This document shows, piece by piece, positions 12,967 to 57,160 of a stretch of DNA of 64,000 bases. The notes under the pieces are model-generated. The model had not been told where the DNA came from. It searched no databases and was given only the letters and a program-made list of their open reading frames with translations. The DNA is from Octopus sinensis (taxonomy: Eukaryota). The stretch covers positions 41,354,001-41,418,000 of the forward strand of contig NC_043007.1 in NCBI RefSeq assembly GCF_006345805.1, written 5' to 3'. Numbering within the stretch: position 1 is the first letter of the stretch; every line of letters begins with the position of its first letter. The position numbers and the translations under genes were made by a program.

Positions 12967-13149
12967 GTCAAAATTTGGTGAAAATCTGAAATGTTGGCTT
13001 TCAAAATTCCGTTTTTTGTCCCTGGTTTACATGAAATTATCCTTTTGTAATCTACTTCTACTACACACAGTGACTGCTGCTCATGTTGATGGCCTGCTTT
13101 CACTGTCACTTCTCTCAACAATTGAAATATATAGTGTGAGAAATAAGTA

Positions 13150-13608
13150 CAGTTCTATATTTAAGAGATAAGGAATTATTTACATTTGACGGATATTTGT
13201 CCTTATCATGTTTGTTAATACAACGTTTCAGCTGATATACCTTCCAGCCTTCATCAGGTGTCTTGGGGAAATTTCGAACCTGGGTTCTCATTCCTAAGGT
13301 ATTTTTCGATGTTATTATTATTATTCAGGTCACTGCCTGGAATTGAACTCGGAATCTTGGGGTTAGTAGCCTGCACTGTTAACCATGGGCATATGGTGTA
13401 GTGGTTAAGAGCGCAGGCTACTAACCCCAAAATTCCAAGTTCGATTCCAGGCAGTGACTTGAATAATAATAATAATGATAACAACAACAACAACATCGAA
13501 AAATACCTTAGGAATGAGAACACCTGATGAAGGCTGGAGGGTATATCAGCTGAGACATTGTATTAACAACAAACAAGATGAGAACAAATATCCATCAAAT
13601 GTAAATAA
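13150..13608. mobile_element. Head-to-head palindromic insert: tRNA-derived head plus hammerhead-bearing Penelope-like tail, 15-bp TSD
   Basis: TSD TGTGAGAAATAAGTA at 13135-13149 and 13609-13623; A-box TGGTGTAGTGG 13394-13404; B-box GTTCGATTCC 13439-13448; CTGATGA core in both arms. Confidence 0.8.
13217..13262 (-). ncRNA. Minimal type I hammerhead ribozyme motif
   Basis: GACAC-CUGAUGA-A-GGCUG(gaagguauau)CAGCU-GAA-ACGU-U-GUAUU. Palindromic stem III; stem I has one mismatch. Confidence 0.65.
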
Positions 13609-14149
13609 TGTGAGAAATAAGTAATTGTACCAACACTATTTTATATAAATAAGGCTTATGTTATTGTTTTGTTTTTAAAAGTTTATAGACAGAATTGACT
13701 CTAAAAAGAAACACCACCACATCCATTGCAGTCTTATGGTAGGGGCCCCACAAGTCTGATAGATTACAATTATGATCTATGTGTGTCTGTTGTGGTTTTT
13801 TATCAATAAATAAATGCTATAGGTCCCAATGCATTGATTTGCCTGCCCAGGGGTGTTTATAATGCTGCTAAGACAGCCTTGACCACAACCTCTCTCTTTT
13901 TATGTATGCGTCTGCTAGAGTCTTGACAAAGACATTTCTTTGGTATTAAGAAACAATTGTGTTACTATGTAATTCCTTCATATTGTTGTGATGCTTCTCA
14001 TCTATAAATATAGCAATTATGATTTTAGGTATGATCAGCATAAATACTTAAAATTTCCTTCCCACATACTCATTCACTAAACTTGTTAAAGTTTGCTGAA
14101 TGAATATATTTGTTTCATTGTTGCTTAACCATTTATATAACCTACCTTA

Positions 14150-14492
14150 TTTCGTTTTTGGATTTGGTTTGCAAGATTCTTTATACGAGTTTGTGTGTTG
14201 AAGCATATTCTGTTGTGTCTGGGGAGAGTCATTTTCTTTTTGTGCTTTATAATTTAACACACTCACCGGTAAAATTTCCACTTATTTTTATTTTCCTAAA
14301 ATTTTCGTTGCGTCTTGCAACCTTTTCAATAGTTTTCAGTTGTCTTTAGTAGTCTTCAAGACTATCAAAAAGGTTGCAAGATGCAACGAAAATTTTAGGA
14401 AAATAAAAATAAGAAATAAGTGGAAATTTTACTGGTGTGTGTGTTAAATTATAAGGCATAAAAAGAAAATTACTCTCCCCAGACACAGCAGA
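14150..14492. mobile_element. Head-to-head palindromic Penelope-like insert with 13-bp TSD
   Basis: Arms 14206-14333 / 14361-14495; direct repeat ATAACCTACCTTA at 14137-14149 and 14493-14505. Confidence 0.8.
14295..14333 (-). ncRNA. Minimal hammerhead-like motif with U3-A8 core variant
   Basis: CUA-UUGAAAA-G-GUUGC(aagac)GCAAC-GAA-AAUU-U-UAG; mirror copy on + at 14361-14399. Confidence 0.55.
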
Positions 14493-16679
14493 ATAACCTA
14501 CCTTAGTGAGTGTGAAAAGTACAAGTTTTTAGGTATACCAAGAGGTAAATATCTTTTAAGATTCACGATTGAATGAACCCAAACAAAAATGATTTTTTAA
14601 CAAATTTATTCTGTAAGGCAACACAAATGAGGTAACACATTGTCTCATGCCTGGGGACTTAATAAGGTCCCACTGTTTGACTATAGTAACTTCAGATTGA
14701 TCTCATCCTCAGAATCAAAACATCCCTGAGGTTGTAATTAATCCATTTGAAGACTGTCAAAGGGACCTTTCCTGTTATTGGTAGCTGGTTTAATCTGTTG
14801 CCCATTATAACACCAATGTTGTTGGCCTGAGAATAGCTTCATTGTTTCTCTGCTCCTGTCTTAGAGGCCCTAAAAAGGACTGAACCTGAAACCATGTGAT
14901 TTGAATGTGAACTTCTTAACCACACACGCAGCCATGCTTATACCAGTTGTGCCTCACTGTTTATTCAGTTTTCTTACAGCTATTGTCATAGATCTTCTGC
15001 TTAGAGTAGGATTAGCAGAGTCTCAAATTGCATTCAGCCTGCTTAACTGCTGTGCAGTCCTCATCATATGTCAAATTTATGTTGTATTTATTTCAGAATT
15101 TAGAAACAAGCCTACTACTACCAGGCACACACGCATATATATCTTTATATATAGCATGTAAACATTACCTGTTAAAGGTAATTTTCTCTTGTGTTTAAAT
15201 GAACACTATTTTATATTGAGAATATGTTGTCTATTGACTTTTTATACATGCTAGGCCACTGGTGGTGAAATTTCTAAAAATATTCACTACCCTATATAAT
15301 TTACGAATACAATTTTAGCATTTTGAAGATTGGTTTGGCATTTTTCACTTATTGCCAACTGAAACTGCACTTGCATGGAGAATTTTGTAAAATTATAACA
15401 TATAATGATGAGACACGTGTTATTTGTCTTTAAATTATGTTAATTGTTATGTCATAGTTACTGATGAGGATTCGCCTAGTAAATTATGTCAAAATTGAAA
15501 TATATCAGTTGTAAAGTCCACACAATCTATTGTAGTTTAACACAGAAAAATCATTTTATATTGATATATATATGACGATGATGATGATATATATATATAG
15601 TTTTACGTTATAGCTACTTTATCTGGGGATTTTTTCCTACAACCCACTCCACCCTTTTGATACCAATCTGCTTGAAATTGACCTTGGATTTATGATACGG
15701 ACTCCCTGTTTTAAAATGATCTTAATTTAAACTTTCTATCTACATTTCATGTCAGTTTAGGTTTCAAATACCAACTTAATGACAAAATTATTTGATTAAA
15801 TTTTTGATTATTTCCAAAATTAATTGAAACAAAGACTGTATTTTAGCAGAAATGTGGTAACAAAAGGGTTAAAGCTACAGAAAATATGCTAGCCTGTATC
15901 TAATACGTTACCTGTTCATAGCATGTCTGTTAATTAGATTCAAATAGAATTTTTCTACTTTAATAATCAGATTCTTAATTTCTTTACTCAATTCAATGCT
16001 GTTTTACCACACAGTCAAGATAAAAACAATTTTTGAAGTCAAATTCTTCTGTGCCCTTCTATATTATGCTTCATTCTTCTACGTTGTTAAATCATATTTC
16101 TGTGGTGTGTTTCAATATTTGCTGTCATTGTACTTGTTAATTCTATACCACCGGATGATTAATTTCTGATATCTCTGTATACTCTATATTTATAGCTTTA
16201 TCAATATTATCAAACTAAAGACAGTGTGTCCTTGGCTACCTTTACACTTAAATGGTTTACAATGTTCTATCACTGACCTATAGATTATTGGTTCAAACCC
16301 ACTACTGGGGTTTCATTTTTTCTGAACTGTACCCCCCTCAGCTGTTTGAAAGAATGTTTCTTGGGTAGATGTACAGCTGTAATAGTTATGGGTAGACTGG
16401 CATTATAGAAAGTGAAAGTATTTTTTGTCTTTAATTGAGGCTATGTGTTTATTGTAATTGCTGCAGTTGGTATTTAGCCCTGAGTCAGCTGTATGATCAA
16501 AGGCATTTTAACTATGATTTTCACATCAGTATAATTGTTTTAAAATGGTAAAGTATGATTTGAGGGTGATTTAGCTGCTATTTCTACCAGATTGAGTGAC
16601 AGTCTAGAGACTCCTTTGTTGAATGGTGTAGTTATTGTCGTTGGGTATCCAAGAGTAACCCCAATCAAGCAGTTCTATT

Positions 16680-55760: not shown

Positions 55761-55792
55761 TATATACATATATATATATACATATATATATA

Positions 55793-56100
55793 TCATCATC
55801 ATCATCGTTTAACGTCTGTTTTCCGTGCTAGCACGGGTTGGACGGTTCAACCGGGGTCTGGGGGAGCCAGAAGGCTGCACCAGGCTCCAGTCTGGTCTGG
55901 CAGTGTTTCTACAGCTGGATGCCCTTCCTAACGCCAACCACTCCGCGAGTGTAGTGGGTGCCTTTTACGTGCCACCTGCACAGGTGCCAGAGGGGTCTGG
56001 CATCGGCCACGGTCGGTTGGTGCTTTTTATGTGCCACCTGCACAGAAGCCAGTCGGGGTGGTGCTGGCATCGGCCACGTTCGGATGGTGCTTTTTATGTG
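55793..56100 (-). mobile_element. RTE-tail SINE-like copy, tail-to-tail with the RTE array
   Basis: Reverse complement of 55590-55760 (ggagtggttggcgttaggaagggcatccagctgtagaaac...gttaaacgatgatgat). Confidence 0.85.
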
Positions 56101-57112
56101 GGGGGGAGGGTGCAGGAATATAGGGGAGCACTGGGGGGGGGGGGTGTTCGGAGAAACGATGATAGGTTCTAGACAAGTAGAACGTAGGATATCACGACAG
56201 AGGTAATGCATGGTGAAATAGCGTATTGAAGAGGGGGTTCGAAGGTAGAGACACCTATAATGGTGGTGGGAGAAGCGACATCCGGTATAGATGAGCAAAA
56301 ATATAGAGATATCTGGTATTGGTGGTGGGGGTGGGCAAGGGCGGGTGCACCGCGAATACACGAAGGTTGATAGAGGAGAGAGCGAGGACTTAGATGGGCA
56401 AAATTATCGTAGTAACATGGAGAAATTATCAGCACATAATAATAAAGGGATATTGAGGGGGGACGGTGGAGAAATGGAGAAATTATCGGCACATAATGAT
56501 AAGAGGAATTAGGGAATACGATGACAACTGCTTAGCTTACGTAGAGACATATATAATATACATATATATATATATATATATATATATATATATATCATAT
56601 AATATATATATATATATATATACATATAATATATATATATATATATAATATATATATATAATAATATATATATATATATATATATATATATATATATATA
56701 TATATAATATATATATATATATATATATATATATATATATAATATACATATATATATACATATATTATACACATATATATATAATCATATAATATATATA
56801 TATATTCATAGATATATACATATATATATATACATATATACATATACATATATACATATATATATATATATATATATATATATCATATATATATATACAT
56901 ATATATATACATATATATATATATATATATATATATATATATATATACATATATACATATATATATACATATATATATATACAATATATATATATATATA
57001 TATATATATATATATATATATATATATATATATATATATATATATATATATTATTAATAGCATGAAATAAAAATCCAAGGCTGTTACAGATCAGAACATT
57101 TATAAATAGAAG

Positions 57113-57160
57113 GTCTTATAGCTGTTTCTGGGATATTTTATATATCCCTTCATCAGAGAC
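57113..57160 (-). ncRNA. Minimal type I hammerhead ribozyme motif (canonical core)
   Basis: GUCU-CUGAUGA-A-GGGAUAU(auaaa)AUAUCCC-A-GAA-ACAGCUAU-A-AGAC. Perfect stems I and II; near-palindromic stem III. Confidence 0.75.

Follow-up and report, generated by a model that had tools for sequence, protein, structure and literature searches.

Mostly palindromic octopus inserts with minimal hammerhead motifs include a tRNA-headed family probably mobilised by Penelope-like elements

The window analysed here is a 64,000-nucleotide stretch of the Octopus sinensis genome (NC_043007.1, positions 41,354,001 to 41,418,000), microsatellite-rich animal DNA with fragments of long interspersed elements (LINEs) and transposases. 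Scattered through it are six short non-coding inserts with minimal hammerhead ribozyme motifs, named i1 (13.15–13.61 kb), i2 (14.15–14.49), i3 (22.94–23.40), i4 (47.83–48.47), i5 (50.17–50.75) and i6 (57.05–57.33), which together span 2,766 of the 64,000 bp (4.3%). All six were present on inspection of the window at the places given by a preliminary description made from the letters alone, and they are treated, in line with that description, as unrelated in sequence: the best of 30 pairwise local alignments is a 26-nt match (score 35), between the i3 tail region (22943–22969) and sequence 5' of the i6 hammerhead (57192–57221), which may be chance. The same description saw no open reading frame (ORF) of a Penelope-like element (PLE) in the window; a Pfam scan of 13 of the 114 window ORFs agrees, finding reverse transcriptase (RT) fragments and no GIY-YIG domain. 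None of the inserts holds an ORF combining RT with GIY-YIG, as an autonomous PLE would.

Four inserts are head-to-head pairs (i1, i2, i3 and i5), one is a direct partial tandem (i4) and one is solo (i6). The inverted arrangement first described, with 5' ends towards the centre, is clear in i1, i2 and i3; the i5 pair is weak (36/44 identities). Exact target-site duplications (TSDs) of 15 bp (13135/13609) and 13 bp (14137/14493) flank i1 and i2, and the other four inserts touch (TA)n, again as described. In a chance control, 20 of 780 random boxes reach 13 bp; both TSDs here coincide with family ends.

Family evidence comes from contigs of four public runs (X1, X3, X18 and X9, the first three genomic in scale), placed at 80% likeness on 13080–14560 (1,481 bp), a span that limits it to i1 and i2, two of the six inserts. 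The rows behind it number 40 of 54 for variants, 15 of 843 for joints and 24 of 2,988 for loose ends. X1 contributed 87,855 contigs, X3 69,064, X18 31,406 and X9 2,263; X9, presumably RNA, covers the insert flanks too and so carries no information on expression or editing. Summed depth over the flank median in X1, X3 and X18 reaches 79,000–90,000x for i1 and 62,000–78,000x for i2, values to be taken as an order of magnitude and not as copy number. In the flank between i1 and i2, X1, X18 and X9 have 19 nt inserted at 13680 that the window lacks, a length polymorphism.

The i1 unit, about 260 nt, comprises in order a tRNA-derived head, (AAT)n, a body, a minimal hammerhead, an inner end and a tail. 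The window copy is a head-to-head pair whose arms are identical at 173 of 186 positions:

13135–13149: left TSD, 15 bp, identical to 13609–13623
13150–13174, minus strand: tail, a 3' extension of about 27 nt on one arm only; family loose ends at 13148 (tail end) and 13175/13611 (inner end)
13175–13385, minus strand: left arm, made up of a tRNA head with its first 15 nt missing, then (AAT)n, body and hammerhead; 93% identical to the right arm
13214–13264, minus strand: minimal type I hammerhead; C3-G8 core at 13257–13251, an extra nucleotide after A9, stem III A-CG-U
13387–13459, plus strand: tRNA-derived head; A box 13394–13404, B box 13439–13447; family 5' end near 13387
13456–13495, plus strand: (AAT/AAC)n spacer, its length differing among copies; loose ends at 13312/13325
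13517–13568, plus strand: right-arm hammerhead, decayed in the window copy (GAGA for GAAA) and restored by the family majority
13609–13623: right TSD, 15 bp, exact

Majority letters in X1 rebuild the motif on both arms. On the right, A at 13554 (99%) returns GAAA, C at 13551 (69%) gives the G10.1-C11.1 pair and G at 13562 (92%) belongs to stem I; on the left, C at 13219 (89%) completes stem I. The 3' ends of i1 are fixed at two positions and lack any poly(A) or simple-repeat tail, and comparison within the window found no LINE-type 3' end on i1.

The least expected feature of i1, missed by the preliminary description, is its tRNA-derived head. An nhmmer profile of 14 annotated phage tRNAs ranks 13389–13450 first in the window (E = 5.5e-5). 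Since a weak Asp tRNA match (E = 8) had led to the choice of this tRNA record, the profile search was redone without both Asp tRNAs; the remaining 12 give E = 1.2e-4. The A/B box pair at 13394/13439 has the top score among 127,860 positions, with a spacing of 44 (44–47 in annotated tRNAs), and the head is present on both arms, the left one truncated as listed. Beyond 13385, a loose end in X9 mirrors the head for about 10 letters (median 10), which places the family start near 13387. Two X9 contigs from other copies (records 26 and 27) span the (AAT)n between body and head, and head-bin depth is 0.45–0.80 of i1 body depth. Neither i1 arm contains TTTT, which is compatible with Pol III transcription but weak; i2 has two such runs. 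Judged by sequence, i1 thus shows the hallmarks of a tRNA-derived short interspersed element (SINE): a head with A and B boxes on a short, non-coding, dispersed, high-copy repeat with a TSD. It may be one of the octopus SINE families of Ohshima & Okada 1994 (OK/OR1/OR2).

A 48-aa frame runs through the i1 hammerhead and matches two Octopus bimaculoides proteins, one of which begins with the repeat, so the i1 family occurs in Octopus. Among 16 protein representatives, 14 have no Pfam family and two are unrelated by Pfam. We rejected the frame as a gene: its matches are mostly translated repeat copies, with no PLE N-terminus. One protein, P0017 from an ENA contig, contains two tandem units of about 42 aa that are similar to a translation of the i1 hammerhead region and represent a hammerhead repeat related to i1 in head-to-tail form.

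i2 is likewise a head-to-head pair (arms 118/128 identical):

14137–14149: left TSD, 13 bp, identical to 14493–14505
14150–14333, minus strand: left arm with a tail of about 57 nt (14150–14204); loose ends at 14148, 14205 and 14333
14334–14364: centre, largely private to the window copy, with a 15-nt palindrome at 14350–14364
14361–14492, plus strand: right arm, without tail; core decayed at 14366–14367
14493–14505: right TSD, 13 bp, exact
34652–34696, plus strand: separate i2 tail fragment within another repeat, 91% over 47 nt (E = 9e-13)

The left-arm hammerhead (minus strand) has a U3-A8 core at 14329–14323 and stem III A-AU-U, next to the family 5' boundary at 14333; in X1, T at 14366 (99%) and G at 14367 (95%) restore the U3-A8 core of the right arm. 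Depth in X1 drops to 4,648 at 14337 and to about 230 at 14342, in the centre. That the families are ORF-less, as first proposed, holds well for i1, with its fixed start at tRNA +1, and fairly for i2, whose 5' ends gather at 14333, immediately ahead of stem I, the sequence further out being mixed (143 contigs, agreement 0.47).

Hammerheads were sought with two descriptors. The first, which allows no extra nucleotide after A9, missed i1 and i2; it found three cores against 0.34 ± 0.62 (maximum 3) in 100 local shuffles, weakly above chance, and one match against 0.01 in its strict form. The second (exact core, stem II, GAAA, palindromic stem III, UH and stem I, with an unpaired nucleotide permitted after A9) was fixed post hoc, after seeing the data, on features published in PMC4209133. 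The second descriptor returns six exact-core matches in the window, four in insert regions and two outside, against 0.15 ± 0.36 (maximum 1) in 60 local dinucleotide shuffles, so the motifs exceed shuffled AT-rich sequence, the comparison the preliminary description had called for. Another of its safeguards, retention of the core in family consensuses, also held at the positions listed, the i1 and i2 majority letters restoring core and stems.

Its assignment of a minimal hammerhead to every insert needs qualifying. Exact cores occur in at least one arm of four inserts, i1 at 13257(−), i2 at 14329(−, U3-A8), i4 at 48248(+) and i6 at 57156(−); those of i3 and i5 are degenerate. i3 is matched by the first, looser descriptor alone (23313+), with lesions in both arms, and i5 needs one core mismatch, G5>A in its sole complete arm (50335−/50680−), the other arm lacking core and stem II. 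The palindromic, loopless stem III is perfect in i1, i2 and i5, has one mismatch in i6, is an odd-length near-palindrome in i4 and is deduced from the two arms in i3. The extra nucleotide after A9 and the G10.1-C11.1 pair are present in i2 and in the i1 majority (69% C), become G-U in i4 and i5, and are off register in i3 and i6. By motif criteria these are likely PLE-type minimal type I hammerheads, with putative self-cleavage. Folding of minimum-free-energy homodimers produced no hammerhead dimer, a method we judge uninformative here, and a 28-nt pattern of the i1 hammerhead has 0 matches in metagenome contigs and 0 in viral contigs.

The two exact cores outside the inserts, at 15461(+) and 58838(−), have marginal stems and no stem III insert, and may be old remnants or chance. 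Lacking a visible inverted partner or TSD, they were rejected as further inserts.

The remaining four inserts lie as follows:

22940–23395: i3, head-to-head pair in (TA)n; arms 23184–22995 (minus) and 23218–23395 (plus)
47830–48465, plus strand: i4, direct partial tandem in (TA)n; a 3' piece of about 100 nt and a 500-nt unit, core at 48248
50165–50750: i5, old head-to-head pair; arms 36/44 identical (82% over 44 nt), hammerhead with G5>A at 50335 (minus)
57052–57330, minus strand: i6, solo hammerhead-bearing end beside (TA)n; core at 57156, its 5' side adjoining a Mariner-like fragment

The arms of i3 are identical at 168 of 178 positions, with a one-sided extension of about 53 nt and degenerate U3-A8 hammerheads at 23078(−) and 23313(+). 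i4 repeats at a spacing of 500 bp (47869/48369), with one hammerhead in 1.2 units and a 9-bp fold-back at its 5' junction (47863–47884). The whole i5 unit is duplicated letter for letter (50165–50405 and 50510–50750, 345-bp spacing). This duplication (50049–50750) takes in interrupted (TA)n though the arms are old, and is either very recent or an assembly artefact; a diverged i5-like piece lies at 51051–51137 (72% over 88 nt). The preliminary claim of PLE-type, high-copy non-coding families is borne out by family data for i1 and i2, while for i3–i6 a PLE-type origin is supported by anatomy; as single copies, these four may be truncated autonomous PLEs.

Elsewhere in the window, a UPF0669 (C6orf120-like) gene forms one long exon or ORF at 26937–27644 (Pfam E = 6e-30). 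Decayed LINE fragments (zf-RVT, RVT_1, and RVT_1 with a PHD-like finger) and Mariner-like DDE fragments lie at 4778–6665, 44896–46512, 52204–53250, 42327–42728 and 57192–57572, none of them with a GIY-YIG score. Inverted pairs of another repeat family, presumably RTE/SINE-like, occupy 55446–56100 and 61279–61869; their arms are 83–85% identical and their (GAT)n/(ATC)n ends central, so that they stand tail-to-tail around a microsatellite. At 12026–12966 is a long inverted repeat, MITE-like or foldback, with arms identical at 308 of 340 positions, a spacer of about 220 bp and no clear TSD. A palindrome at 50906–50972 (84%) sits within 50801–51029 with 39 nt of (TA)n(GA)n on one side and its mirror image, (TC)n(TA)n, on the other. 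None of these inverted structures matches a hammerhead, and those at 12026–12966, 55446–56100 and 61279–61869 were left out of the insert set.

Much of the system as first framed is already published (PMC4209133, PMC3846280). Minimal hammerheads of metazoan PLEs are type I and share the extra nucleotide after A9, G10.1-C11.1, the palindromic stem III and the U3-A8 variant (PMC4209133); they occur as thousands of single motifs and as dual motifs 100–700 bp apart on opposite strands. As far as the available text goes, that work does not cover octopus, has no tRNA head and does not analyse the TSDs or tails of opposite-strand pairs. PLE insertions (PMC3846280, PMC8557442, PMC11167929) share the head-to-head arrangement, one-sided tail, junction palindromes, microsatellite targets, partial tandems and mobilisation in trans by pseudo-long terminal repeats (pLTRs). 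They differ in TSD length (8–10 bp in the published insertions, 13–15 bp here), and the inserts described here have no ORF between the arms, tails of about 27–57 nt and, on i1, a tRNA-derived head. In O. vulgaris, PLEs account for 6.83% and fall into 190 families, and 30 Penelope families have been active recently (PMC13282606), so six inserts in 4.3% of the window are to be expected; the word 'hammerhead' occurs 0 times in the supplement of that paper.

The nearest precedent for i1 is Schistosoma Sm-alpha/Sj-alpha (PMC6765202), where a Pol III promoter precedes a hammerhead in a short non-coding repeat. Those repeats are tandem and ribozyme-cut from multimers, whereas i1 has a minimal hammerhead, is dispersed, spans the cleavage site and shows a PLE-type tail, inversion and TSD. 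Non-LTR retrozymes (PMC7229834; bioRxiv 10.64898/2026.07.22.740005) are likewise non-coding, carry a type I hammerhead, include dispersed monomers and have been proposed as non-autonomous PLE derivatives. Their definition, however, calls for circular RNA and for units repeated head-to-tail, every one with its own hammerhead; i4 offers one hammerhead in its 1.2 units, and the i5 duplication includes a microsatellite and a damaged core. A tRNA head as internal promoter of a non-autonomous element is shared with tRNA-derived SINEs (SINE2) and with Helenus/TRIMp3 (Kojima 2024, PMC10886601). The partners named there are non-LTR/LINE elements for SINEs or LTR (long terminal repeat) elements for TRIMp3, and 'Penelope' and 'PLE' occur 0 times in that paper.

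In our view these short non-coding repeats, with their minimal hammerhead motifs, were probably placed by the RT and GIY-YIG endonuclease of a PLE acting in trans, and the 13.2-kb family is probably a Pol III-transcribed SINE using such machinery. A PLE protein is reported to nick and extend both strands of AT-rich DNA, its RT starting at two internal sites that bound the tail on uncleaved RNA (PMC11167929). In our model, it would nick both strands, 13–15 nt apart, in AT-rich or (TA)n DNA, and each nick would prime reverse transcription on uncleaved RNA. Starting at the outer site would give an arm with a tail and starting at the inner site an arm without one; the two cDNAs, extended towards the RNA 5' end and joined mid-way, would form a head-to-head palindrome within a single TSD. 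Two-nick priming accounts for the single TSD, the single tail and the variable centres. The one-sided 3' extension noted at the outset is seen here as two 3' ends per family among the loose ends listed (13148 versus 13175/13611 in i1; 14148 versus 14205 in i2), matching the two RT start sites, and in i3 and i5 as single-copy evidence.

The hammerhead would be part of the PLE cis element. Cleavage is not required for PLE insertion and the PLE protein is a predicted dimer (PMC11167929); Naiads form inversions without canonical hammerheads (PMC8557442). Within a palindrome, a hammerhead cannot pair with its partner because the partner is on the opposite strand and the two arms of a read-through transcript are predicted to pair with each other; predicted folding of whole palindromes gives 101–162 long-range pairs between arms. 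The genomic palindromes are thus, on predicted structure, likely dead ends and sources of double-stranded RNA (dsRNA), and unlikely ribozyme dimers. One might speculate that the palindromic stem III pairs two RNAs for insertion.

Several observations weigh against this explanation. In the window, no partner PLE was found and no insert body was matched to a PLE pLTR, and none of the 16 proteins matching the 48-aa frame has an RT or GIY-YIG domain. Rfam, which the preliminary description had recommended, and ARAGORN detect neither tRNA nor hammerhead: among 150 of the 208 window Rfam matches, or in five short stretches, there is no hammerhead at E ≤ 10 and no tRNA, and ARAGORN returns 0 genes. 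Head depth could include other SINEs sharing the same head. The family data cover two of the six inserts and part of the rows, and contig joints within repeats may be artefacts. Finally, at 13219/13562, where about 90% of the family has another letter, both arms of i1 carry the same minority letter outside any CpG. Such sharing suggests a single template, whether through one RNA, one source locus, fold-back or later conversion, rather than two RNAs drawn at random.

That shared letter also favours a variant in which element identity is unchanged and fold-back self-priming on one RNA or cDNA during insertion, instead of priming at two nicks, makes the palindrome. Fold-back, already proposed in PMC3846280, would suit the short junction palindromes of i2 (14350–14364) and i4 (47863–47884), and we regard it as possible, if the less likely route; alone it leaves unexplained the different ends of the two arms, at the tail and at the inner site, which fit two RT start sites.

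Another reading makes all six inserts 5'-truncated, inverted stumps of autonomous PLEs, with the i1 head a piece of a tRNA SINE captured in a PLE untranslated region and no separate non-autonomous family. PLE copies are indeed mostly 5'-truncated with an inverted pLTR and tail (PMC8557442, PMC3846280), single and opposite-strand minimal hammerheads have been attributed to truncated PLEs (PMC4209133), i3–i6 are known from single copies, and a few contigs extend beyond the i2 5' boundary with shared letters (14337–14349). The i1 loose ends, however, halt at tRNA +1 (X9, 13385), and the heterogeneity of those at 14333 in i2 is unexpected with one common upstream ORF. We hold this reading unlikely.

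The preliminary description had the palindromes themselves as the mobile unit, inserting as ready-made hairpins. A single TSD around the whole palindrome agrees with this, and one i2 junction contig at depth 2,314 in X3 could be an amplified palindrome, although contig depth is inflated by words common to the family. Set against it, arms are joined at differing places among copies (13277>13522, 13300>13391 and 13325>13385 in i1; 14270>14389, 14332>14393 and 14333>14399 in i2, from the joints listed), the i2 centre in the window is almost private, the two arms end differently, at the tail and at the inner site, as two-site priming during insertion predicts (PMC11167929), and arm-to-arm folding is predicted to bury the hammerheads. 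As centres differ between copies, palindromes were likely built at insertion, and we think the ready-made hairpin very improbable. If the arms began identical, their divergence of 6–8% would correspond to some 8–11 million years at the PMC13282606 rate.

Least probable of all is that i1 is an ordinary LINE-dependent SINE with a chance hammerhead and the palindromes independent head-to-head insertions or MITE-like: the window does hold inverted pairs and a long inverted repeat without hammerheads (55446–56100, 61279–61869, 12026–12966), but one 15-bp TSD surrounds both i1 arms, the tail is one-sided, no poly(A) or simple-repeat 3' end exists, and i2 and i3 show the i1 layout without a tRNA head.

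The feature is real and, for the most part, of a known kind; apart from the i1 family, it is ordinary PLE debris, and the likely new part is a tRNA-headed SINE with PLE-type integration. Neither a PLE-dependent element with a tRNA head nor a hammerhead SINE of octopus came up in a literature search; such families may already be in Repbase, Dfam, SINEBase, the Zenodo library of PMC13282606 or the bioRxiv supplements, which lay outside that search. On its sequence features, i1 is likely a PLE-mobilised SINE, predicted to be transcribed by Pol III, with Penelope enzymes standing in for those of the LINEs on which SINEs usually rely. If so, it would be an exception to the rule that tRNA-headed SINEs depend on LINEs, and its 260-nt natural RNA would define the minimal cis signal for a PLE RT. 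The origin of PLE inversions is open in PMC3846280 and PMC11167929, and the small palindromes, in their tens of thousands and with TSD, tail and centre known, would put two-nick and fold-back models to a direct test.

In its full form the proposal, which we consider evenly balanced between true and false, is that octopus harbours a tRNA-headed SINE of about 10^5 arms, mobilised by PLEs through a captured hammerhead-and-tail cis element, a third partnership beside LINE–SINE and LTR–TRIMp3, and that its insertion-made 200-bp hairpins could be a main dsRNA source for hyper-editing. Octopus has an exceptional share of near-perfect dsRNA and of hyper-editing (PMC5625713), and by analogy with palindromic Harbinger in frog we infer that such self-made hairpins could help to explain both.

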